Virus record (IMG/VR): IMGVR_UViG_3300030389_004188
Origin: an uncultured virus (IMG/VR IMGVR_UViG_3300030389_004188)
Taxonomy: Duplodnaviria > Heunggongvirae > Uroviricota > Caudoviricetes
Strand: one strand, 5' to 3'
Length of the DNA stretch: 20,000 bases
Shown here: positions 1-16,941 of the stretch, piece after piece
Numbering within the stretch: position 1 is the first letter of the stretch
Layout of the letters: each line of letters opens with the position of its first letter
Translations under genes and position numbers: made by a program
The notes under the pieces: model-generated
Told to the model about the DNA's origin: nothing
Seen by the model: only the letters and a program-made list of their open reading frames with translations
Database searches by the model: none

Positions 1-2
1 CA

Positions 3-272
3 CATTTTATAACCGAACAAGTATTGACTGTTCCGAATGGTTCTTTATCAGTTCTACTTGATGATGGGTTTGAAAAAAAAACTTTTTTGCTTGACTCTCC
101 CAATAAAGCTTTGTATATTCCGTATGGTATATGGGACTCGGCAGTATATGAAAGTGAAGATACTATTTTGTTGGCAATGTCAAACATAGAATATAGAAGA
201 GAAGATTACATCGTAGATTATTATGAATTCAAACGACTAAAGGGAGTACAAGATGAGACCATTAGGAACTGA
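3..272 (+). CDS. FdtA/QdtA (WxcM-like) cupin, dTDP-4-keto-6-deoxyglucose 3,4-ketoisomerase; 5'-truncated by the window edge
   Basis: The frame is open from base 3 (HFITEQVLTVPNGS), matching the family H..EQ.L...GS segment. The C-terminal LLDSPNKALYIPYGIW...ILLAMSN..Y..EDYI.DY.EF is typical. The TTG at 24 is internal. Confidence 0.8.
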   Translation, partial: HFITEQVLTVPNGSLSVLLDDGFEKKTFLLDSPNKALYIPYGIWDSAVYESEDTILLAMSNIEYRREDYIVDYYEFKRLKGVQDETIRN

Positions 273-915
273 TTATCTACAATATGATAGTGAGATTTAT
301 CCATTCAGAACAATAATCGAAGATTATATTGGGGAAGAATTAGAAAGAATACATTATAAAAGACATTATGAATTATTGAATCAACTGAAAACTGAACAGA
401 GAACTATCTTTCACAAAAGAGTTTATCGTGAAGTTACTGGCGATGATAGATTGAATTTTATTGAGTTGTATAAAAGTTTTTTGAAAGATTACATACAGCC
501 ACAATGGGGAGATACTCAGTTATGTTATCAGACTATTCCAACATTTAGATTTCAATTTCCTGGTAACATCGGTGTATCAAAATTTCATAGAGATAGTTCA
601 TACAACCACTCACCCAATGAAAAAAACTACTTCCTACCATTGATGGATACTAAAGAGACTACTTCAATTTGGGTAGAATCAAATGTAGACAAAGGAGATT
701 ATGCACCAATGATTTGTAAATATGGTGAGGTAATACAATGGGATGGTTCTACTTTGACTCACGGAAATAAACTAAACACTACAGATACTACAAGAGTTAG
801 TTTTGATTTCAGAATTATTAGTTTTGATGATTGGGAAAGTTATAAGTGGAAAGAAAGTACGATAACTGCAGTAAAAAATCTAAGTGTTCTTGGAGACTAT
901 TGGAGTAAATTATGA
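253..915 (+). CDS. StrG-like Fe(II)/2OG-fold dioxygenase
   Basis: YQTIPTFRFQFPGN, an HxD motif (FHRD), a distal His (LTHGN) and a terminal TRVSFDFR. GGGAG SD upstream. Confidence 0.7.
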   Translation: MRPLGTDYLQYDSEIYPFRTIIEDYIGEELERIHYKRHYELLNQLKTEQRTIFHKRVYREVTGDDRLNFIELYKSFLKDYIQPQWGDTQLCYQTIPTFRFQFPGNIGVSKFHRDSSYNHSPNEKNYFLPLMDTKETTSIWVESNVDKGDYAPMICKYGEVIQWDGSTLTHGNKLNTTDTTRVSFDFRIISFDDWESYKWKESTITAVKNLSVLGDYWSKL

Positions 916-1835
916 GAAAAAATATACTTGTTACAGGTGGACTTGGACATATTGGTTCACAAATTATAAGAAAACTTGACCACGATATAACCGTAGTTGA
1001 TAACCTTTTGACTCAAAGGTATTGTTCTTTATTCGAGTTGGATAAGAAAATAAATTTTGTAGAGTCTGATTTTTCTGAATTAGATTCTTCCTTTCTAAGT
1101 ACATTTGACGAGATATTACACTTTGGTGCAATAACAGATGCAGCTGGTAGTTTTGATAACAAAGAAGAGTTGGAAAAACATAATGTGGTATCTACTAAAA
1201 AACTAATAAATAAATTCGTAGATTCTACTTGTAAGAGATTTATATTTCCCTCATCTACAAGTGTTTATGGTGTCGCAGCTAGTGTAGTGGATGAAGATAA
1301 TGATGAGTATGTAAATCCACAATCACCATATGCAGAATCAAAAGTAGAGATTGAAAACTATCTAAAGTTGAAAATAGACCCAACAACACATAACTATATT
1401 ATTCCAAGATTTGGAACTATCTATGGATTTTCGATTGGTATGAGATTCCATACTGCAATAAATAAATTCATTTGGCAATCAAAAATGAAAGAACCATTGA
1501 CGATATGGAAAGAAAATTATAAACAATACAGACCTTATTTGGAATTATCAGATTGTGTTCGTAGTGTTCAACACTTATTAGAAATTCCTTATATGGATGC
1601 AAAAAATAATACGATTTACAATATTTTGACTAATAATTATACATTAGAAGAAGTTATTGAAAACTTAGAAAAAGTTTTTGGTAAACAAGAACTCAATTTT
1701 GTTGAGACTCCGTTATTGAATCAATTTAGTTATAAAGTGAATGACTCAAAAATTAGAAGAACAGGATTTGTACCAAGTGGTGACTTACAATTATCGTTGG
1801 TTAGTACATCAGTTGCAATGGATGGTATAAGATGA
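912..1835 (+). CDS. NAD-dependent nucleotide-sugar epimerase/dehydratase (extended SDR)
   Basis: ILVTGGLGHIG Rossmann motif, FPSSTSVYG, catalytic YAESK, RFGTIYG. Confidence 0.9.
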   Translation: MRKNILVTGGLGHIGSQIIRKLDHDITVVDNLLTQRYCSLFELDKKINFVESDFSELDSSFLSTFDEILHFGAITDAAGSFDNKEELEKHNVVSTKKLINKFVDSTCKRFIFPSSTSVYGVAASVVDEDNDEYVNPQSPYAESKVEIENYLKLKIDPTTHNYIIPRFGTIYGFSIGMRFHTAINKFIWQSKMKEPLTIWKENYKQYRPYLELSDCVRSVQHLLEIPYMDAKNNTIYNILTNNYTLEEVIENLEKVFGKQELNFVETPLLNQFSYKVNDSKIRRTGFVPSGDLQLSLVSTSVAMDGIR

Positions 1836-2746
1836 AAAAAGTATTAGTAACAGGTGGAGTTGGATTTGTTGGTACAAATCTGATAGAAGAATTACTAAAA
1901 CAAGGTTATAAAGTTTCATCAGTAGATAATTACGATACAGGAAAAAAAGAAAGAGAACTTGAGGGATGTAAATATCATAATATAGATATTTCAAAACCAA
2001 GTTGGTGGAGTTTATCAGATAGTTGTTGGTGTGAGTTTTGGTGTGATTGTGAGATAGAACAACCTGATATTATTTATCATTTAGCTGCAAGAGCTAGAAT
2101 ACAACCATCTTTTGAAGACCCACAATCTACTTTTCGTAGTAATGTTTTAGGTACACAAAATGTATTAGAGTATGCGAGACTACGAAATATACCTGTAATA
2201 TATGCGGCATCATCCTCATCACACGGAGATGTACACGCAAATCCATATACATTTACAAAATGGCAAGGTGAAGAATTGATAAGACTTTATAATAAAGTAT
2301 TCAATGTACCAACCGTTATCACAAGATTTTATAATGTGTATGGTGAGAGACAAAATACAGAGGGTGCTTATTGTAATGTATTGGGTATATTTGAAAGACA
2401 ATATGGTGAAGGTAGACCACTAACAATAACTGGTGATGGGGAACAGAGAAGAGACTTTACTTATGTAAAAGATATTGTTGATGGGTTGATTAGGTGTAGT
2501 TATATTCTTGAAAGTAATAGAAGTCACAAAATTAGTGGTGAAGAAATAGAATTAGGTAATGGTAAAAATTATTCAATCAATGAATTGGCTGATTCGTTTG
2601 GTGAGAACTATCCTACAAAATACTTAGATGAAAGACCTGGTGAAGTTAGGGAGAGTCTAAATACAGATACAAAGGCACAAGACATTTTGGGTTGGAATCC
2701 AAGTGGAGATATTTTAGATTACATAAAAAATAAACTCGTAAGATGA
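1832..2746 (+). CDS. NAD-dependent nucleotide-sugar epimerase/dehydratase (UDP-hexose 4-epimerase-like SDR)
   Basis: VLVTGGVGFVG, HLAA, YAASSS, YTFTK, RFYNVYG, GDGEQRRDFTYVKD, RPGE. Confidence 0.92.
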   Translation: MKKVLVTGGVGFVGTNLIEELLKQGYKVSSVDNYDTGKKERELEGCKYHNIDISKPSWWSLSDSCWCEFWCDCEIEQPDIIYHLAARARIQPSFEDPQSTFRSNVLGTQNVLEYARLRNIPVIYAASSSSHGDVHANPYTFTKWQGEELIRLYNKVFNVPTVITRFYNVYGERQNTEGAYCNVLGIFERQYGEGRPLTITGDGEQRRDFTYVKDIVDGLIRCSYILESNRSHKISGEEIELGNGKNYSINELADSFGENYPTKYLDERPGEVRESLNTDTKAQDILGWNPSGDILDYIKNKLVR

Positions 2747-3141
2747 AAATCAGAGACATAGTAAGACCATTATTACAAGAGATTTATCAACCTGATGGTT
2801 GGAAGATGTTGGTTTGTTGTATAATGTTAAATCTAACAAACAGAAAACAAGTGGATAGAGTAAGACATAAATTATTCAAAAAGTATCCAACTGCTAAAGA
2901 TTTATCGGTAGCTGATTATGAAGAACTATCTGAATTACTCACACCATTGGGGATGCAGTTCAAGAGAGCTGCAACACTAATGAAATTTAGTAAAGAATAT
3001 AATGATGGATTTACAGATCCCATAGAATTATATGGTATCGGTAAATATGCTAAAGACTCTTGGGAGATATTCCAAAATAATAATATGAATGTAAAACCAA
3101 AGGATAAAGTTTTACAAGAATATCTAAGAGTAGAGGGGTAA
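2743..3141 (+). CDS. Stand-alone MBD4-like HhH-GPD DNA glycosylase domain
   Basis: LLQE, WKMLVCCIMLN.T, KYPTA, ELLTPLGM..KRA.TL.KFS.EY, HhH motif PIELYGIGKYAKDS and catalytic Asp in VKPKD. Colinear with the MBD4 glycosylase domain. No FeS cluster motif and no methyl-binding domain. Confidence 0.85.
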   Translation: MKIRDIVRPLLQEIYQPDGWKMLVCCIMLNLTNRKQVDRVRHKLFKKYPTAKDLSVADYEELSELLTPLGMQFKRAATLMKFSKEYNDGFTDPIELYGIGKYAKDSWEIFQNNNMNVKPKDKVLQEYLRVEG

Positions 3142-3870
3142 ATGAAAATAATAGTTACAGGTGGTAAGGGTAAATTTGCATCTTTACTAAAAGAAAAAGG
3201 TAGTGAGTTAGGTCACGAAATACTTTGTCCAACTAAAGAAGAAATGGATATAAGAAAACTTTGGGGACACGGTGGTGTTTATGATTATTTGTGGAGTCAA
3301 ACAGATACAGACATCGTAATACACGCTGGGGCACTAACAAGACCAATGGTTGTACATCAAGAAAGACCACACGATAGTATAGAGACAAATATAATTGGTA
3401 GTAGTAATGTGGTTCTTGGTTGTATGAAATTTGATATGAAAGTAATTTATGTATCTACTGATTATGTTTATGAGGGTAAAGATGGAAACTATACAGAAGA
3501 CTCACCAGTAAAACCATTCAACAATTATGGTTGGTCAAAACTTGGTGGTGAAACACCTTGTATGATTTATGATAATTCACTAATACTAAGAATTTGTATG
3601 AATAACAAACCATTTCCACATCCAAAAGCATTAGATGATATGTATAAGAGTTTGATTTGGGATGATGAGGCTGCTGATATTACATTGAAATTGTTAGATG
3701 AAAAAGGTATCATAAATGTAGGTGGTGAATCAAGGTCGGTGTATGACTTTGTATCTAAAACACATAAAGAAGACATTGGAAGAATATCACTATCAGATGT
3801 AAGTAATGTAAAGATGGGTACAAACACAACAATGGATTGTAGTAAACTTGAAAGGATATTGAATGATTAA
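3142..3870 (+). CDS. rmlD: RmlD/RfbD-like dTDP-4-keto-sugar reductase (SDR)
   Basis: IIVTGGKGKFA, IHAGA, YVSTDYVYEGKDGNYTEDSPVKPFNNYGWSKLGGE (STDYVF and YxxSK signatures). Confidence 0.8.
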   Translation: MKIIVTGGKGKFASLLKEKGSELGHEILCPTKEEMDIRKLWGHGGVYDYLWSQTDTDIVIHAGALTRPMVVHQERPHDSIETNIIGSSNVVLGCMKFDMKVIYVSTDYVYEGKDGNYTEDSPVKPFNNYGWSKLGGETPCMIYDNSLILRICMNNKPFPHPKALDDMYKSLIWDDEAADITLKLLDEKGIINVGGESRSVYDFVSKTHKEDIGRISLSDVSNVKMGTNTTMDCSKLERILND

Positions 3871-4828
3871 TTTATTTGAATTCAATAATTACAAAATAGA
3901 CACTAAGAAATTAGACCATTTATTACACGGTTCTGCAGTTAGAAAACTTGAAGAACAGATTTGTGAATATGTTGGTGCAAAATATTGTGCATCATTCTGT
4001 AGTGCATCATTTATAATAGAACTTATGTTTAGTCGTCCTGAGTTTATCAACAATGAGACAAGTCTTGATATTCCAAGTATGATTCCACCTGTCGTTCCGA
4101 ATGCACTACATCATGCAGGTATGGAAATATACTTGAATGATGATGTTGATTGGGTTGGACATTCTTATGTGTTATGGGAAGAGTTTGGTGGTGAGAGAAA
4201 GATAATAGATTCTGCACAACAAATTGATAGGAATCAATTTTCTGATAATTGTAATGATGATGACTATATGATATTTTCATTGTATCCAACAAAACCATTA
4301 TCATCATTGGATGGTGGATTAGTTGTATCAAATAATAAAGAGGGTATTGAATTACTAAGTAGTCTTGGATTCTATGGTATGAAACGAGAGATAGATTCTT
4401 GGTCAAGAGAACCAATTAGGTATGGACACAAAACATATTTACCAACAATACAGGCAGAGTTGGCATTAGAAAACCTAAGATTTTTAGATGAGAGACACGA
4501 AAAGATTGACTACATAAGAAATTATTATAACAAGAATCTTGGGTTGAAAAATACAAGTAGACATCTTTATAGAATACGAGTTGATAATAATCAAGATGCA
4601 ATGAAATGGTTCAAGGAACAAGGTATAATTACAGGTGTACATTATAAACCAATTCATCAAATAGAATTATATAATCACTATGAATGGGATTGGCATCTTA
4701 GATACCACAACATACCGAGAGTAAATAATCACGGAGAGACCACATTATCAATTCCATTTCACCATAAATTACAAGACAATGATATAGAATATATAGTCGA
4801 AAAGGTACAGGAGTATAAGAATGCTTGA
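3863..4828 (+). CDS. DegT/DnrJ/EryC1/StrS-family PLP-dependent sugar aminotransferase (short variant)
   Basis: LE..ICEYVGAKY, IDSAQ, FSLYPTKPL..LDGG with the PLP lysine, GVHYKPIH, TLSIPFH. Confidence 0.88.
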   Translation: MINLFEFNNYKIDTKKLDHLLHGSAVRKLEEQICEYVGAKYCASFCSASFIIELMFSRPEFINNETSLDIPSMIPPVVPNALHHAGMEIYLNDDVDWVGHSYVLWEEFGGERKIIDSAQQIDRNQFSDNCNDDDYMIFSLYPTKPLSSLDGGLVVSNNKEGIELLSSLGFYGMKREIDSWSREPIRYGHKTYLPTIQAELALENLRFLDERHEKIDYIRNYYNKNLGLKNTSRHLYRIRVDNNQDAMKWFKEQGIITGVHYKPIHQIELYNHYEWDWHLRYHNIPRVNNHGETTLSIPFHHKLQDNDIEYIVEKVQEYKNA

Positions 4829-5942
4829 AGAAATAAAAAGTTTATTCAAGGATGGTGACTATAAAGGTAAGGTGGAGTTTTTAGTATTAGGACCTTGGTG
4901 TGGTGAGTTTAGTTATGAAACGAATTGGTGGATTCCTGAGTGTAGATTACAAGTAGATAAATATTCAAGTGACGATGATATGAAGATGGTAGTTGTGGTG
5001 GTAGGTGAGTTGGGTAGTCAGCCATTGTATAGAGATTTTTGTGACTACTACATTCCAATACCACATAATTTTGGTGACGAACACGGTAAAGAGATTAAAA
5101 TTCCTGAGATGAGAGACACTTGGGCTAGAAGAAGTGATAATAAAAATGTTATGATGGCAGAAATACCTAAACCAATACAAGATTTTTATAATCATATTTG
5201 TAATAAGTGTGGAGAGTATGGAGAGGTTTACAAATATAGTCCGAGTGAGTACATAAAAGATAAAAGATATATGGAAAGACCTGCAGGTATTATTGAATAT
5301 TATACACCACCACTAAAAGAGTTGAACTTAGTAAAAGATATAATTCAAAATCATATACATAAAAACGAAAGAAAACCTTTGATATCAATATTTGCAAAAC
5401 AAAGATATCGACAAGGTAAATTAGACTTTGAGAGTTGGAGTCCAAAACTTTGGGAAGAGTTTATGATAAGACTTGATGAGTTTGGTGTAAGTATTCTAAA
5501 TTTTGTAATAGAAGGTTCTGCAGGATTCTTAGAACTTGATGAAGAAGTGGTAAAAAAATATCCACATATAAATCAAATGGTTGTAAAAAACGATGTTCCA
5601 GCACCAATGGTAGATTGTATGTCCGAAAAAACAATTTTAGGATATCAAATGGCAGTTCTTGAACTAACAGATATGTCAATTTGGGGTTCAACTGGTGCTT
5701 GTACTCTAAATTATTTTATGAAGTATAGAAAACCTATGTTTGTTCAACACAATAAAAACGATGTTTGGAGACAACAATTCGAGTGGATGAGAGATATAAC
5801 ACAAGACTTACATCAGATACATTTTTTTGATAAGTATAAAAGAAATGAGATGGAAAATATTCCTGTAGATGAAATGATAGATGAGTTTAGAGGGTGGCTC
5901 AAGTCTGATTTTCAAATAGAAACTAAGAAAGAAGAAGAATGA
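4821..5942 (+). CDS. Hypothetical protein, possible divergent GT-B-fold glycosyltransferase
   Basis: 373-aa ORF coupled to its neighbours. N-terminal GPWCGEFSYE, a central SWSPKLWEEF and a C-terminal SIWGSTGA loosely resemble the GT9 layout. Confidence 0.4.
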   Translation: MLEEIKSLFKDGDYKGKVEFLVLGPWCGEFSYETNWWIPECRLQVDKYSSDDDMKMVVVVVGELGSQPLYRDFCDYYIPIPHNFGDEHGKEIKIPEMRDTWARRSDNKNVMMAEIPKPIQDFYNHICNKCGEYGEVYKYSPSEYIKDKRYMERPAGIIEYYTPPLKELNLVKDIIQNHIHKNERKPLISIFAKQRYRQGKLDFESWSPKLWEEFMIRLDEFGVSILNFVIEGSAGFLELDEEVVKKYPHINQMVVKNDVPAPMVDCMSEKTILGYQMAVLELTDMSIWGSTGACTLNYFMKYRKPMFVQHNKNDVWRQQFEWMRDITQDLHQIHFFDKYKRNEMENIPVDEMIDEFRGWLKSDFQIETKKEEE

Positions 5943-6154
5943 GAGATTTACAATCATCACTAAAATCAAAAGGTGAGTATGTAACACAGATAATTCACTT
6001 TGTTGGCGGAGTGAAAAGAACATTTGAGGGTGTATCGACATCCAAAATAAAACAAGGTCAAATGACTAAATTAGAACTAAAGGATGGTAGAATAGTAATG
6101 ATAAATGATACAAATGTATTATGTGTAGAAGTATTTTCAGAGGATATGGAATGA
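5939..6154 (+). CDS. Small hypothetical protein (71 aa, beta-rich)
   Basis: ATGA overlaps at both ends (5939-5942 and 6151-6154). No recognised motif. Confidence 0.75.
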   Translation: MRDLQSSLKSKGEYVTQIIHFVGGVKRTFEGVSTSKIKQGQMTKLELKDGRIVMINDTNVLCVEVFSEDME

Positions 6155-7449
6155 GTGTAGTAGACAAAATAAAGAATCTCATTGACGAGATTGAATCAGA
6201 TAAGAGTGTATTGAGGTACTCGTACAATACCTCAGATATAGTTCCTGGTAAGACTCCAATATACTATTCAGGTCCTTATTGGGATTCTGATGAGTTGAAG
6301 GCTGGTGTTGTTTCATTTTTGACTGGTAAGTGGTTGAGTTCAGGTGAAAATGTATATAAATTTGAAAAGAAATTCTCAAAAAGATTCAAGTGTGGAAACT
6401 CAGTTATGGTCAATAGTGGTAGTTCTGCAAATCTTGTTATGATTGCAGGAATAAAGAAACATTTGAAATGGAATGATGGTGATGAGATAATTGTATCACC
6501 AGTTGGATTTCCAACTACCATTGCACCTATTGTTCAGAATAATATGACTCCAATATTTGTGGACATCGAATTCGACACATTGAACTTTGATGTAAAACTA
6601 ATAGAGAAAAAGATAACAAGTAAAACACGAGGTATATTTTTATCACCAGTATTAGGTAATCCTTGTAATATGGATTTCTTGGATTACTTATGTAAGAAAT
6701 ATAACTTGGAATTAATTTTAGATGGGTGTGATTCACTTGGTACATTATGGAATGGTAAATATCTAACAGAAATGGCAAAAGTATCTTCTTGTTCTTTTTA
6801 TCCAGCACATCACATTACTTGTGGTGAGGGTGGTATGATTTCATCAACAGATGAGGATTTGATTTCTATGGTGAGAAGTTTTTCTTGGTGGGGAAGAGAT
6901 TGTTATTGTGTCGGTAGTGCTAATTTACTTGCTTGTGGAACTTGTGGTAATAGATTTGATAAATGGTTAGAACCAATGTATGATGGTATAGTAGACCACA
7001 AATATATTTTTACCAATATGGGATACAATCTAAAACCATTAGACTTACAAGGTGCACTTGGACTCGAACAATTGAAGAAGTTTGATTTCATTGAAGAGAA
7101 AAGAAGAGAGTCAAGAGAAAGAGTTTCTAAAATATTTGAAGATAATCTTGATATAAAAGTACCAATTCAGTTAGACCAAGCCGATACCTCGTGGTTTGGT
7201 ACACCAATAATCTGTAAGGACAAGGAACAAAAAGATAAGATTGTTAGTCACCTTGAAGAAAATAAAATACAGACTCGTAACTATTTTGCGGGTAATATTT
7301 TGATACATTCTGGTTACTCACATTTGGATGATTACAAATTATATCCAAATTCAAATGAAGTCTTGGATAGAATATTTTTTGTAGGGGCTGCACCACATTA
7401 CAACGATGATGTGTTTCAGTACATAGAAGATGTAGTGAGAAAAATATGA
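6151..7449 (+). CDS. rfbH: RfbH/DdhC (E1)-type NDP-4-keto-6-deoxyglucose 3-dehydrase, PMP/[2Fe-2S]
   Basis: VNSGSSANL, GFPTTIAP, SFYPAHHITCGEGG (His replaces the PLP Lys), WGRDCYC...TCGNRF Fe-S cysteines, DHKY, GYNLK, TRNYFAGN. Start placed at ATG 6151 (ATGA overlap, GAGGA upstream) rather than 6121. Confidence 0.93.
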   Translation: MSVVDKIKNLIDEIESDKSVLRYSYNTSDIVPGKTPIYYSGPYWDSDELKAGVVSFLTGKWLSSGENVYKFEKKFSKRFKCGNSVMVNSGSSANLVMIAGIKKHLKWNDGDEIIVSPVGFPTTIAPIVQNNMTPIFVDIEFDTLNFDVKLIEKKITSKTRGIFLSPVLGNPCNMDFLDYLCKKYNLELILDGCDSLGTLWNGKYLTEMAKVSSCSFYPAHHITCGEGGMISSTDEDLISMVRSFSWWGRDCYCVGSANLLACGTCGNRFDKWLEPMYDGIVDHKYIFTNMGYNLKPLDLQGALGLEQLKKFDFIEEKRRESRERVSKIFEDNLDIKVPIQLDQADTSWFGTPIICKDKEQKDKIVSHLEENKIQTRNYFAGNILIHSGYSHLDDYKLYPNSNEVLDRIFFVGAAPHYNDDVFQYIEDVVRKI

Positions 7450-8294
7450 GTCAGTTAGGAGATAGGAAAGTATCAATTGTTATTTCACTTTTCTTGAAAA
7501 CAAGAGCAGTTGTAGGTGGTTCACGAGACAATCCAAATAATAATACTAAATTATTTGATATGTGTCAAAATGTTATGAAGTATGCCAATTCGATATCAAA
7601 TAAAAACATACAAGTGTTCTTGGGAGTAAACTATACAGAGGATTCTGATAAGAAATGTTTAGATTATTTGGAAAAAGAATCTGATAGAAATCAATTTATC
7701 ACCTTTGTACGAAGAAATAATAATTTAGGTGGTTGGTCGTATGGATTGTTTGATTATGTATTTAGACAAGAAAGAGATAATGGATATGATTATTTTATAT
7801 TCTACGAAGATGACCAGGTTTCAAAGTATGGGTGGGATGAAAATGTAATATCAAATTCGATTATGACAATGGAAAAGAATAATGAAATAGGATTTTTTGC
7901 ATCAATTGGAGTGAATAAAAGAGACCCATTCAAAAGAATAGGTACTTGTTCTGCACATAATGGTACAGGAATGTCTTCAACTAAAATCTTGGGTGAGGTT
8001 TGTGATAAGTGGGGACAATTGAATTGGTCAAAAGTTGAGGGTGGATTTATTCACAATGGATATGGTGATAAAATTCAAGTAACAGGATTGACCAGACCAC
8101 AAATGGTAGAAAGAGCCCTTGAGTTTTTACCACAATATACTGAGGATGTAACTTCATCATACAATAGAAAAGTTCAAGCCGCATTTAGTGAGGTGGATTT
8201 TACTGATAGTATTTGTAAGTTGGGTTATGGAATCTATGAAGAAAAAGGTGGACCAGGTGGTAAGGGAGTTTTACATTGGAGGACAGCAAAATGA
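7446..8294 (+). CDS. Putative GT-A-fold glycosyltransferase
   Basis: RRNNNLGGWSYG followed by YDYFIFYEDD (DxD-like); context of the sugar cluster. Confidence 0.55.
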   Translation: MSQLGDRKVSIVISLFLKTRAVVGGSRDNPNNNTKLFDMCQNVMKYANSISNKNIQVFLGVNYTEDSDKKCLDYLEKESDRNQFITFVRRNNNLGGWSYGLFDYVFRQERDNGYDYFIFYEDDQVSKYGWDENVISNSIMTMEKNNEIGFFASIGVNKRDPFKRIGTCSAHNGTGMSSTKILGEVCDKWGQLNWSKVEGGFIHNGYGDKIQVTGLTRPQMVERALEFLPQYTEDVTSSYNRKVQAAFSEVDFTDSICKLGYGIYEEKGGPGGKGVLHWRTAK

Positions 8295-9031
8295 AAAAAA
8301 CTATAGTAGTTGGAACAGGAAGATGTGGTACACGAGGGTTTGCAAAAGCCTTTGGTGGAGTTCACGAGTATAAAACATTCGAGAGATTTCATCCATTATA
8401 TGTTAGGATGAACACTGCAGTTCGTAATCCATTTCCAAGATTTGAAGACAGACTTTATAGTTCAAAGTTGATGTATCACGACTTAGAACAATTACATCCA
8501 CATAAAGAATCATTTATGAATGTAGATAATTCTATGACTTGGTTGGTAGATGGAATCTATAAATTCTTTGAGGGTGATGTGAAGTTTATTTTATTAGTAA
8601 GAGATGGTAGAGATTTTGTTACATCAGCCGTAAATAGAGGATGGGCAGAGAGAGTAGAGTTAGACCATTATCCATTAGAGGGTGATTTGGTTAGAGACAG
8701 ATGGGACAATATGTCTTTGATTGGAAAGGCATCTTGGATGTGGAATGAAAGAAATAGAAGGGCACTAAATTATTTGGCAGAGATACCAGAAGATAGTTGG
8801 AAAGTACACAGAATCGAGGATTCAACAGAAGAGAGTTTGAAAGAGTTATCAGTATGGTGTGAACAACCATTAGTTGATTCCAATCAGATTTTGAAAGGTA
8901 ATGAGAATACAAACATTGGAAGTGGAAGGTATAATAAGAAAATAGAAAACCACCAAAGATGGAATGAAAAAGAAAAATTAGACTTTTGGGAATACTCTCA
9001 AGAGTTACAGGAGTATTTTGGATATGAGTAA
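8291..9031 (+). CDS. PAPS-dependent sulfotransferase family protein
   Basis: 5'-PSB loop IVVGTGRCGT and 3'-PB motif KFILLVRDGRDFVTS, then W.E.N, HRIED and C-terminal YFGY. Start placed at ATG 8291 (ATGA overlap). Confidence 0.82.
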   Translation: MKKTIVVGTGRCGTRGFAKAFGGVHEYKTFERFHPLYVRMNTAVRNPFPRFEDRLYSSKLMYHDLEQLHPHKESFMNVDNSMTWLVDGIYKFFEGDVKFILLVRDGRDFVTSAVNRGWAERVELDHYPLEGDLVRDRWDNMSLIGKASWMWNERNRRALNYLAEIPEDSWKVHRIEDSTEESLKELSVWCEQPLVDSNQILKGNENTNIGSGRYNKKIENHQRWNEKEKLDFWEYSQELQEYFGYE

Positions 9032-12331: not shown

Positions 12332-13295
12332 AGTAGCATTTTTTAGTGAGATGGGATTCACGAGTAAAGTCACTCGTGAACACGCTAATATGAGAACAGA
12401 ATTTGCATGGTTTTGTGCACTTGATGCCGACCATTATCCATTATCAGAAGATGTTGGAGAGGGTTGGAATAAAGATGGTATGGGTGAATATGATTTTGGA
12501 ATAGTAATCATACCAAAGAATTACATACCATTCAAAATGGATAACATAAAAAGGATGTGTAAAAAAGTTGGATTTATGCAAGAAGGTCCAAGTTGGTATT
12601 TTCAAGACCTACCATTTGCAGAACAAATTCATATGGTAAATAATATGACTTCTGCAGATTTTATATTTGCACATAATGATAGAGATGCAAAATACTATGA
12701 AGGTCTTTTAGGTAAACCAACTTTCATAAACCCAACACTTATGATAACAGATTTGTTAGATGACTTGCCACATAAAGATAAAGACGATAAAGTATTGGTA
12801 GGTGGTAATTTTGTTAGATGGTATGGTGGTTGGAATTCTTTTATAGTTGCAAGAGATTTAGGAGTACCAATTTGGTTACCAAGTATGGGTAAGATGAACG
12901 AACAAGAAAAATATTTTGAAGAGGTCAATCATTTACCTTATATGGATTGGTTTGGTTGGATGAAATCAATACGAGACTTCAAGTACGCAGTTCATTTGAA
13001 TCCAAATACAATCGGTGGTACATTTTATTTGAATTGTGCGTATTGGGGAATACCTTGTGTTGGAAATAAACATACCAATACACAATGGAAATGTTTTCCA
13101 GAAACATCAGTAGAACCAGATGACTTATTAGGAGCAAAAAAACTTGTAAAGAAGTTACGAGACAATAAACACTTCTATAATTCTGTATCAAAACAGGCAA
13201 AATATAATTTTAATAAACATTTTGGAGAAGAAGTATATATTTATATAATGAATAGGAGATTCGATGAAATCAATAAGTTACATACTACCAAGTAG
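12303..13295 (+). CDS. Putative GT-B (GT4-like) glycosyltransferase
   Basis: ADFIFAHN, and C-terminal GTFYLNCAYWGIPCVG and VEPDDL..AKKLVKKL resembling the GT4 nucleotide-binding region. Confidence 0.6.
   Translation: MKTLEKPKHKVAFFSEMGFTSKVTREHANMRTEFAWFCALDADHYPLSEDVGEGWNKDGMGEYDFGIVIIPKNYIPFKMDNIKRMCKKVGFMQEGPSWYFQDLPFAEQIHMVNNMTSADFIFAHNDRDAKYYEGLLGKPTFINPTLMITDLLDDLPHKDKDDKVLVGGNFVRWYGGWNSFIVARDLGVPIWLPSMGKMNEQEKYFEEVNHLPYMDWFGWMKSIRDFKYAVHLNPNTIGGTFYLNCAYWGIPCVGNKHTNTQWKCFPETSVEPDDLLGAKKLVKKLRDNKHFYNSVSKQAKYNFNKHFGEEVYIYIMNRRFDEINKLHTTK
13236..13248 (+). promoter_or_regulatory. Putative phage late promoter TATATTTATATAA inside the upstream CDS
   Basis: 13-mer identical to 16944-16956, followed by an AGGAG SD and ATG 13264. 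Confidence 0.55.
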
Positions 13296-14511
13296 AAATA
13301 ATCTAAAATATCTAAAACAGGCATACGAAAGTATACGAAAGAACTCTTCACTACCATATGAAATTTGTATCGCGAGTGATGCAAGTACGGATGGTACGGT
13401 TGAATGGGTTCAAAGTATAATGAAAGAAGATGAGAATGTAAAACTTCATATCAATGAAGGTCCTGAGAGACTTGGACATACTATATTATACGATACACTA
13501 ATAAATGAATATGCAACAAATGATATTGTTATGATATTTCACGCGGATATGTATCTAACACCCAATTCAGATAAAGAAATTGATAGACTATTAGAAAAGG
13601 GAAAAGTAGTATCATTCACAAGAATAGAACCACCACTACATCCTGATGGGCCAGAGAAAATATTATTAGACTTTGGTATAGAACCAGAAGAGTTCAAAGA
13701 AGAGGAATTATTAAAAACGGTGGAAGATTTACAGACAGGAAGGGATGGAATCAAGTATGGCCCTCTCTTATTGAATCACGATAGAACCAATGGTATATTC
13801 GCACCTTGGGCTATATATAAAGAGGACTTTCAATCTATCGGTGGACACGACCCACTCTACGCTCCTCAATCAAAAGAAGACTCTGATATATTCAATCGTT
13901 TCAAACTAAATGGTTACGAGTTTATACAAACTTGGAAAGGATTTGTATATCATATGACTTGTAGAGGTTCACGATTCAAAGATGGGGCCATACGAAATCC
14001 TAGCGGACAAGTTTTTATGAGAAATAGAGAATCGGATGAGTGGTTGAAACAGAATGAAAGAAGTACAAGAAATTTTGTTCGTAAATGGGGACACTTAGTA
14101 AAACACGATGAAAAATTACATCCTATCATTCCACCAAAATATAATGTTGGTTTTGTGGTAGAGAATTGTAACTATGAATTTCTAAGAGAATTAGAGCCGT
14201 GGTGTGATAACATATATGGTGATTGGGTTGGACATAAAGGTATTTATGTAAACAAATACATTGAGGATGAACAACCAAATACTCAGTTTGATTTGAGTAA
14301 AAGAATTAGAACACAACATACTAATCCAACAAATAACATCGTGATTAGATTCGATTGTAGTAAAGTTACACAACAGAGTTTCGATATAATTGTAAATTTA
14401 TCAGAGATACTACAAGAAAGTGCAGAGTTAGGTACTATGGAATTAGACATATTCAACTTTGAAATAAAGTCTTTGAAGACATATGAAAAGGATTTGATTG
14501 TATGTCAATAA
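13264..14511 (+). CDS. GT2-family glycosyltransferase with C-terminal extension
   Basis: ISYILPSRN, IASDASTDGT, IFHADM, F.SIGGHD, EDSDIFNR, VYH. AGGAG SD at 13254-13258. Confidence 0.9.
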   Translation: MKSISYILPSRNNLKYLKQAYESIRKNSSLPYEICIASDASTDGTVEWVQSIMKEDENVKLHINEGPERLGHTILYDTLINEYATNDIVMIFHADMYLTPNSDKEIDRLLEKGKVVSFTRIEPPLHPDGPEKILLDFGIEPEEFKEEELLKTVEDLQTGRDGIKYGPLLLNHDRTNGIFAPWAIYKEDFQSIGGHDPLYAPQSKEDSDIFNRFKLNGYEFIQTWKGFVYHMTCRGSRFKDGAIRNPSGQVFMRNRESDEWLKQNERSTRNFVRKWGHLVKHDEKLHPIIPPKYNVGFVVENCNYEFLRELEPWCDNIYGDWVGHKGIYVNKYIEDEQPNTQFDLSKRIRTQHTNPTNNIVIRFDCSKVTQQSFDIIVNLSEILQESAELGTMELDIFNFEIKSLKTYEKDLIVCQ

Positions 14512-14795
14512 GAAAATCTTATTACAAAGATTATCTATCACTACATAAAAATAGAAAGAATCGTAGACTACATTTTATAGGTCAATGGGTCACACTATTT
14601 GTTGTTAGTTATATGTTTTATAGTGGATTTTATTGGTTACTACCAATCATACCATTTATAATCTATCCATTTGCTTGGACAGGACATTATTTGTATGAGA
14701 AGAACGAACCAGCAGCCTTTCATAATCCAATAAAGGCTAAAATATCAGATTGGATTATGTTTTGGGATATACTAAAGGGTAAGATAAAGATATGA
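14502..14795 (+). CDS. DUF962 / Mpo1-like membrane protein
   Basis: YLSLH.N..NRRLHFIG, two hydrophobic segments, AWTGHYLYEKNEPAAF, DWIMF.DIL.GKI. Confidence 0.88.
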   Translation: MSIRKSYYKDYLSLHKNRKNRRLHFIGQWVTLFVVSYMFYSGFYWLLPIIPFIIYPFAWTGHYLYEKNEPAAFHNPIKAKISDWIMFWDILKGKIKI

Positions 14796-16100: not shown

Positions 16101-16430
16101 ATGGCAAATAAAAAGAGTAAGTTGGATACATCAAAGGTCTTGAAAAAAGTTTTAGAGGCACCTGAGGATATCGGACAAGACTATTTAGATAAAGAAGAAC
16201 TAAAAGAACTACTCGATACTATACCAGAACTCGCAGAAGAGTTGAATGATTTGGTGGATGAGATGAGTAGTCTCGGTAAAGAAATTGTAGAAGATTTTGG
16301 TATCGATGAAGATAATGATAACTCTGATGTAATAGTACAAGTACATCAAGATTCACCTATATTGGAAGAAGATGGGAAAGAAGATAAACATATCAAGTCT
16401 GGGAACTCCGAAGAATCCGTTCAGAAGTAA
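16101..16430 (+). CDS. Acidic hypothetical protein (109 aa)
   Basis: ORF in an operon-like arrangement; D/E-rich and probably helical. Confidence 0.7.
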   Translation: MANKKSKLDTSKVLKKVLEAPEDIGQDYLDKEELKELLDTIPELAEELNDLVDEMSSLGKEIVEDFGIDEDNDNSDVIVQVHQDSPILEEDGKEDKHIKSGNSEESVQK

Positions 16431-16941
16431 ACCAATACCAAAAGGTAGGATAGAATGGGCAATAGAGAATTCTGTGTCGATGAAATCTGCTGCTCGATTG
16501 TTGGGTGTAAATTATAATACATTCAAAAAGTATGCCAAATTATATGATGTGTTCAATCCAAAACCAGATAGAAGTGGAATACCCTCGACAGGAAATAGTG
16601 GATGGAATGCTGGTGGGGCTAAATTAGAAGATTTATTGGGTGGTAAACATCCAAATTATCCACATTGGAAACTACAAGAAAGACTTATCAAAGAGGGATA
16701 TATAAAACAAGAGTGCAGTAATTGTGGGTATGATGAGGTAAGACCACAAGACTATCAAGGGCCATATTTATTGAATTTTCTTGATGGTGATGGAAAGAAT
16801 CATAAGTTAGAGAACCTATCACTATTATGTTATAATTGTTTCTTTCTAATGAAACCTGCAGGTAAGGTATTATCCACACCAAAAAATATTGTCCACTTAC
16901 GAAATAAATTGATGAAGGCTTTTGACGAAGATTCTAATTAG
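16372..16941 (+). CDS. HTH domain fused to a zinc-binding HNH-like domain lacking catalytic His
   Basis: SMKSAARLLGVNYNTFKKYA (HTH); CSNCG...LNFLDGDGKNHKLENLSLLCYNCF (HNH scaffold with two CxxC motifs). Confidence 0.75.
   Translation: MGKKINISSLGTPKNPFRSKPIPKGRIEWAIENSVSMKSAARLLGVNYNTFKKYAKLYDVFNPKPDRSGIPSTGNSGWNAGGAKLEDLLGGKHPNYPHWKLQERLIKEGYIKQECSNCGYDEVRPQDYQGPYLLNFLDGDGKNHKLENLSLLCYNCFFLMKPAGKVLSTPKNIVHLRNKLMKAFDEDSN

Follow-up and report, generated by a model that had tools for sequence, protein, structure and literature searches.

The window, a stretch of 20,000 nucleotides from an uncultured virus of the Caudoviricetes (IMG/VR IMGVR_UViG_3300030389_004188), carries a single long series of plus-strand genes, among them a gene predicted to encode a stand-alone MBD4-type HhH-GPD DNA glycosylase of 132 aa (2743..3141, +; recognised by its open reading frame, Pfam and phmmer). 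The gene sits between two SDR sugar enzymes, as originally described: a 304-aa SDR nucleotide-sugar epimerase/dehydratase upstream (1832..2746, +; Pfam Epimerase/GDP_Man_Dehyd) and a 242-aa RmlD-like SDR downstream (3142..3870, +; Pfam RmlD_sub_bind/Epimerase). The glycosylase ATG (2743-2745) overlaps the TGA of the upstream SDR gene (2744-2746) in an ATGA at 2743-2746, and its TAA (3139-3141) is followed without a gap by the ATG of the RmlD-like gene at 3142, so that the start and stop codons agree with the overlap and the zero gap first reported for this reading frame. Both junctions carry a copy of the 8-bp direct repeat ATGAAAAT, the left copy (2743..2750, +) forming the start of the glycosylase gene and the right copy (3142..3149, +) the start of the RmlD-like gene; the two mark the left and right boundaries of the cassette described below. 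The glycosylase gene is probably co-transcribed with the sugar genes. Its tight packing is uninformative, however, since the gap is zero or negative at 22 of the 30 gene junctions in the window, and its composition lies within the spread of the other window genes, both in GC (31.1% against 33.3 ± 2.6) and in GC3 (24.1% against 25.7 ± 6.0). The surrounding sugar island includes at least six glycosyltransferases, two DegT aminotransferases, and FdtA/RmlC/C-methyltransferase genes. Other genes of this stretch include one for a 220-aa protein (253-915, +) matching the NCBIfam model 'sporadic carbohydrate cluster 2OG-Fe(II) oxygenase' at 41.8 bits, below the cut-off of 150, a 97-aa Mpo1-like (DUF962) protein (14502-14795, +) directly after the island's last glycosyltransferase (GT2, 13264-14511), and an HNH endonuclease just past the latter (16372-16941, +).

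HhH-GPD (PF00730) is the sole Pfam domain of the 132-aa protein, at 29.2 bits just above the cut-off of 26.2, and a search of the PHROGs assigned no family. When phmmer was run against PDB chain sequences, the 15 best matches were MBD4 glycosylase domains (E 7e-24 to 1e-22, over residues 10-127), compared with E-values of 0.07 for endonuclease III (Nth) and 0.24 for archaeal MIG. An AlphaFold2 model built from an alignment of 35 relatives has a mean pLDDT of 93.1, and its top 16 of 16 Foldseek matches in the PDB are MBD4 (TM 0.87-0.88, rmsd 1.2-1.4 Å, identity 42-44%); MIG follows at TM 0.70 and rmsd 6.1 Å, with MIG, MutY and Nth spanning TM 0.57-0.70 and, for most chains, rmsd 5.5-7.8 Å. MBD4 structures may have been part of what AlphaFold2 learned, so the agreement in fold does not count as evidence separate from that of the sequence. 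A fragment of Nth or MutY was ruled out as an identity by the NCBIfam equivalog models, both far below their cut-offs (nth TIGR01083, 31.5 bits against 211.7; mutY TIGR01084, 18.5 against 286.5), by the Nth E-value and by the order of the Foldseek matches. Alignment and modelling thus agree with the original prediction of an MBD4-like enzyme and place MBD4 far ahead of Nth, MutY and MIG; the protein is a genuine glycosylase domain of the MBD4 type and resembles no other HhH-GPD branch as closely.

Judged by its sequence, the protein does not qualify as a full-length eukaryotic MBD4, the N-terminal methyl-CpG-binding domain being absent: Pfam detected no MBD domain in the 132 residues, and inspection of the sequence found no four-Cys (Fe-S) motif, the C-terminus lying 11 residues past D121. 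That the protein has neither a methyl-binding domain nor an FeS cluster had been anticipated. It shares with the catalytic domain of mammalian MBD4/MED1 (PDB 4e9e, 1ngn, 3iho, 6vjw, 4evv) the fold, the Gln, the HhH Tyr, the catalytic Asp, the lack of an Fe-S cluster and a similar size of about 130-140 residues. It differs from MBD4/MED1 in being encoded by a phage as a free-standing protein of 132 aa that lacks both the methyl-CpG-binding domain and the linker, and in having Leu in place of the Arg of LN-R-T, with an invariant Arg three positions further on. Nth, MutY and archaeal MIG belong to the same HhH-GPD superfamily and have the catalytic Asp after the hairpin as well, but the phage protein lacks their Fe-S cluster loop and matches them weakly in sequence and structure. 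Its Tyr stands at what is presumably the position of the Nth lyase Lys.

The motifs LLQE, LNLT, GIGKY, and PKD of the phage protein align with LVQE, LNRT, GIGKY, and PED of the human and mouse MBD4 chains, so the first, third and fourth are indeed equivalents of the MBD4 motifs, as had been proposed. Q12, the HhH hairpin G98-I99-G100, Y102, and the catalytic D121 are all present and align with Q449, Y540, and D560, which we take to form the active site of human MBD4. Among 35 marine phage sequences W20, N30, T32, R34, G98, G100, Y102, and D121 are invariant and Q12 is conserved in at least 90%; among the aligned representatives of the wider family the catalytic Asp is present in 142/142 and the Tyr in 145/147. 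The remaining motif differs. L31 occupies the position of R468 in the human LNRT, presumably the Arg that fills the gap in the DNA, and might entail a DNA handling different from that of human MBD4. The substitution noted in the original prediction is therefore present, but it is not a meaningful departure from the family: when the window protein was aligned with the 150 best representatives of the profile search described below, Arg was found at the LN-X-T position in only 13 of 70 long eukaryote-type proteins (≥230 aa; K 26, R 13, C 8, V 7, L 6, I 6, Q 2, A 1, H 1) and in 7 of 70 short ones (<200 aa; Q 27, L 23, R 7, C 5, K 4, V 3, M 1). As the position varies across the whole family, Leu is ordinary there and Arg does not define the family. 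At the +3 position, Arg is found in 44/70 short forms and Gly in 57/70 long forms, and the 35 marine phage sequences have Leu (21) or Cys (14) at LN-X-T with Arg at +3 in 35/35. That the basic residue plugging the gap has been relocated to R34 in the phage forms seems a reasonable inference from these alignments. The difference at residue 31, together with a pocket mapped for the Q, Y, and D residues alone, would leave room for another substrate, for instance 5-hydroxymethyluracil or a pyrimidine that has been oxidised or alkylated, or for a DNA binder without catalysis. The invariant catalytic Asp and Tyr, the nearly invariant Gln, and the closeness to MBD4 at 42-44% identity and an rmsd of 1.3 Å make such a role extremely improbable.

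A profile search of 1.84 billion proteins returned 4,496 matches at E ≤0.001, 1,813 at ≤1e-10 and 99 at ≤1e-30. The scan of the 78 representatives (of 150) with at least 200 aa found an MBD domain in seven, and single long representatives carry chromo, Myb/SANT, LAP2alpha or zf-CXXC domains, which marks these as eukaryotic. Ten short representatives were looked up and all proved to be metagenomic, on contigs of at most 209 kb. A search restricted to proteins of similar length gave 922 clusters (90% identity) at E ≤1e-5 among 932 candidates, nearly all of those among the matches listed being 130-150 aa long and derived from marine data sets, and this strengthens the case that marine phages abound in stand-alone genes for the MBD4 catalytic domain, as recognised by sequence, a domain known from eukaryotes. 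In bacteria, the family profile met Nth-type matches alone in five genomes (34-50 bits, positions 12-91), and no MBD4-type match at E ≤1e-18 was found in 401 + 401 sampled genomes of two bacterial phyla. A contig scan with patterns from the query alone yielded 38 loci, all of them weak partial Nth-like matches at 25-38% identity. In a maximum-likelihood tree of the domain (153 rows, 127 columns; 11 of 164 rows excluded as fragments), the window protein groups with marine viral contigs (SH-aLRT 94 with L010 and L017). The backbone has little support, 62 of 149 inner branches lying below 80, and the tree thus points to no donor and does not show which way the gene passed between phages and eukaryotes.

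A tblastn search of cultured phages turned up 16 records with a homologue, 13 of them in the Xp12 group (9 Xanthomonas, 2 Stenotrophomonas, and 2 Janthinobacterium phages), the other three being cyanophage S-TIM54 and two records of an Aeropyrum virus. The 'ENDO3c' proteins of the Xp12 group, such as Xp12 QNN97216 and AXL1 gp65, are likewise short and stand-alone and belong to the same family, with 37-39% identity over 91% of the query. A passage in PMC9206674 describes AXL1 gp65 as an ENDO3c-domain protein of uncertain activity with an unclear active site, and the literature search found no published description of a phage MBD4-type enzyme. The two settings differ, however, in that the ENDO3c genes of the Xp12 group lie in a dCMP-modification/nucleotide module of 5mC phages, whereas the window gene lies in a sugar operon and C5-modification genes were not detected in the genome that provides its context.

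This genome context is provided by the nearest record, G001, a 109-kb linear IMG/VR contig of about 59% completeness, which matches the entire window at 98.8% identity and in which the sugar island extends past the window. The site of the glycosylase gene is filled in G001. A search with the downstream RmlD-like protein retrieved a 40.6-kb contig (L087, G035) whose flanks match window positions 1-2750 at 98.5% and 3140-8858 at 97.3% with nothing between, and no MBD4-type match was found anywhere in its 40.6 kb. The left junction of the window reads ...CTCGTAAG-ATGAAAAT-CAGAGAC and the right one ...GGGGTAA-ATGAAAAT-AATAGTTAC, whereas the single junction of the empty form reads ...CTCGTAAA-ATGAAAAT-AATAGTTAC, one copy of the repeat being kept. 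The comparison defines a unit of 399 bp, reaching from one ATG to the next and delimited by the direct repeat. Where the unit is missing, the TGA of the SDR gene overlaps the ATG of the RmlD-like gene. A pattern covering both alleles recovered the empty site from the 40.6-kb contig, which is present in both collections, and from an independent metagenome contig of 24.5 kb, so that two independent contigs, nearly identical to the window on both flanks, are without exactly this ORF. The description of the gene as an insert in the sugar operon thus holds in the sense of a discrete unit, and the gene is a dispensable, optional accessory cassette of 399 bp. The polymorphism is compatible with deletion as well as insertion, and a deletion could have arisen in a single step by recombination between the repeats; in either case, the sugar operon is complete without the glycosylase gene.

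The stretch is present in 19 runs of 9 studies, and the filled form was found in contigs of three runs from three studies, indicating that the filled arrangement is stable. Runs X16-X19 (0.76 of words) were considered as carriers of the empty allele and rejected, X16 proving to hold the filled allele with 15 differences. Joints of the empty site were not seen in X1, X11 or X16, whose contigs show presence and not absence, and the raw reads of run X23 give the stretch hardly any coverage. Single small contigs of low depth, from X1 and X11, depart from the window sequence at 2743 and around 3134, which hints at the gene occurring in other contexts in co-occurring relatives.

Gene context was compared across 34 viral contigs with relatives at 42-100% identity, G001 being one of them and the other 33 being counted. 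UvdE lies directly downstream of the homologue in 8/33 loci (L010, L012-L014, L016-L019), and in seven of these eight an ATP-dependent DNA ligase lies two genes upstream. A peptide deformylase gene is found directly upstream or one small gene off in 6/33 (L015, L016, L020-L022, L039), five of them beyond the UvdE set, while 17/33 (L023-L038, L040) have an FkbM-type methyltransferase upstream and a conserved gene of 351-360 aa downstream. UvdE is five genes away in L009, and L011 and L041 have no UvdE, deformylase or FkbM neighbours. The 17 FkbM-type loci form a distant group, here called group B (genomes of about 255 kb), in which a block is fixed in the order 660-aa gene, 532-aa gene, FkbM-type gene, glycosylase, and 351-360-aa gene, the large genes of the block belonging to no Pfam or PHROG family. 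DruA-like (Druantia) genes of 397 aa occur a few genes downstream of the glycosylase in two loci (L011:8710-9900(+), L021:9110-10300(+)). In the cultured phage Xp12, the homologue directly precedes genes for a HAD hydrolase, a thymidylate-synthase homologue, dCMP deaminase, and DHFR.

The original prediction raised the possibility of a link to a base-glycosylation pathway. On this view the glycosylase would serve the sugar island, contributing for instance to the glycosylation or hypermodification of DNA bases. The gene is indeed embedded in the operon by its ATGA overlap and zero gap, the arrangement recurs in the contigs from three studies, and genes related to the 2OG oxygenase and GT2 of the window lie about 3 kb upstream of the homologue in L016 and L039. 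This last arrangement implies that sugar island and glycosylase share one plastic region. However, sugar genes adjoin the homologue in 0/33 of the other viral loci, whose neighbours are instead repair genes, deformylase or FkbM, two contigs have the entire operon and lack the gene, overlaps between genes are usual in the window, and the gene set of the island fits an oligosaccharide pathway. A functional tie is therefore highly unlikely, and the comparison of neighbourhoods, with homologues lying in other contexts away from sugar genes, gave the outcome that the original prediction had named as refuting the link to sugar genes or base glycosylation. LPS-type clusters of sugar and glycosyltransferase genes in large marine phages have been attributed to changes of the host surface, as a passage on pelagimyophages in PMC7029224 has it. 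The attractive idea of a DNA enzyme working within a sugar pathway is thus removed, and what is documented instead is a single-gene cassette, acquired or lost at gene boundaries within a plastic region of the phage.

The phage itself is a large T4-like marine phage. G001 holds a T4-like replication set of PolB, gp32, UvsX/RecA, DnaB-like helicase, class II RNR, ThyX, and dUTPase, along with the DenV pyrimidine-dimer glycosylase, a 5'-3' exonuclease, PNKP-HAD, and PhoH; its PolB shares 45% identity with the PolB of Microcystis phage Mel-JY01, against about 31-33% for the others among the matches listed. A gene of the UDG family was not found in any of the 5/5 long contigs searched. UvdE is present in 3/5 of these contigs, G001 (about 59% complete) having DenV and no UvdE, and among them a ligase was found in G027 alone, with none in the same incomplete G001.

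It is quite likely, taking all parts together, that the gene encodes a stand-alone, cluster-less, monofunctional MBD4-type glycosylase repairing U/T:G in phage DNA, carried on a dispensable cassette whose site in the sugar operon is incidental. The substrate, the monofunctionality, and the later repair steps are those we infer from the sequences. The enzyme would flip out and excise U or T, arising from deaminated C or methylated C, where paired with G in phage DNA, leaving an abasic site. The latter would be processed by phage or host enzymes, with DenV as a possible AP lyase in this phage and UvdE in its relatives, and a PNKP-type phosphatase or the 5'-3' exonuclease, PolB, and a ligase might then complete the repair. 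The place of the gene in the sugar operon would merely result from genes being shuffled within a plastic region and would not point to a shared function. Such a repair role is favoured by UvdE downstream in 8/33 loci, by the ligase in seven, by the neighbours of the gene in Xp12, by the DenV, 5'-3' exonuclease, PNKP-HAD, and PolB genes of G001, and by the lack of detectable UDG-family genes in 5/5 long contigs, while L31, the tight packing with sugar genes, and the failure to find a ligase or UvdE in the roughly 59% of the genome represented by G001 count against it. The activity of the enzyme would bear on the way in which phages without UDG handle deaminated cytosine. Use of the enzyme as a counter-defence or offensive tool, either undoing cytosine deamination inflicted on phage DNA by the host or attacking host DNA, would suit the accessory nature of the gene, which is present or absent like many counter-defence genes, as well as the DruA-like and GmrSD-like genes of the same plastic regions. 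Such a use is nevertheless very unlikely, as no deaminase or inhibitor gene was found beside the homologue in the loci examined and the neighbours that recur are repair genes.

A specialised variant of the repair reading supposes that the phage DNA contains modified cytosine, either at C5 as in Xp12 or N4-methylated, and that the enzyme removes the products of its deamination. The homologues in cultured phages come mainly from the Xp12 group, where the Xp12 homologue adjoins the module with thymidylate-synthase homologue and dCMP deaminase, and 5mC takes the place of C in the Xp12 genome according to passages in PMC8670742 and PMC9206674. PF00303 (the thymidylate-synthase/dCMP-hydroxymethylase fold) is found in 6/33 other contigs, 10-16 kb from the homologue and in each case in the distant group B (48-58% identity), and a second, divergent TS-fold gene is found in G027. 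On the other hand, neither PF00303 nor PF00145 (C5 methyltransferase) nor PF00383 (dCMP deaminase) was found in the about 59% complete G001, which holds the RNR, ThyX, and dUTPase module, and PF00303 was not found in 14/14 other contigs of the window's lineage, which are fragments but include contigs of 94, 94, and 126 kb.

Methylation at N4 is brought into consideration by four paralogs of 358-504 aa in G001 (L002:2042-3556(-), L005:18374-19450(-), L006:1833-3041(-), L006:3029-4252(-)), each with an uncharacterised N-terminal part, a motif I (D.S.GWGGR-like), and then FTSPPYF, and with weak matches to N6_N4_Mtase and DNA-methyltransferase PHROGs; a PDB sequence search with one of them gave no useful match. 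The SPPY motif is what we take to be a marker of N4-cytosine methyltransferases, and the four paralogs may be enzymes of this type. G001 also encodes a 253-aa DPPY (beta-class) DNA methyltransferase directly beside PolB (L006:7568-8329(-)), kept in a relative (L009:4353-5114(+)), which together with the four paralogs counts in favour of modified DNA. The N4 version is weakened by its dependence on our assumption about the SPPY motif and by N4-methylation being generally held to slow deamination rather than to raise it, and both versions by the near-identical phages that live without the gene. The enzyme may repair deaminated modified cytosine, but its specialisation for DNA modified in either of these ways is unlikely. 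Quite unlikely, too, is the combined proposition that the family is common to phages and eukaryotes (it was not found in the 802 sampled bacterial genomes), that the plug residue has moved to R34, and that the enzyme is matched to an unrecognised cytosine modification written by the SPPY proteins; were it true, the filled and empty alleles would show in nature what it costs a phage to be without such repair.

Several further genes of G001 are of interest with regard to the host and to the region around the island. A 916-aa TonB-dependent receptor (CarboxypepD_reg + Plug; L006:10206-12956(-)) may hint at the host, its architecture being, as we understand it, typical of Bacteroidota, and a TonB C-terminal domain protein is encoded at L004:6432-6767(-). 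Two small proteins (L003:14673-15113(-), L003:15587-16033(-)) have a type IV pilin N-terminal methylation motif, and a 639-aa protein (L002:76-1995(-)) gives a weak GmrSD_C match. A DUF1599 'nucleotide modification associated' protein (L005:17979-18353(-)) is encoded shortly beyond the sugar island, where it adjoins a PD-(D/E)XK nuclease and a SLOG-family protein.
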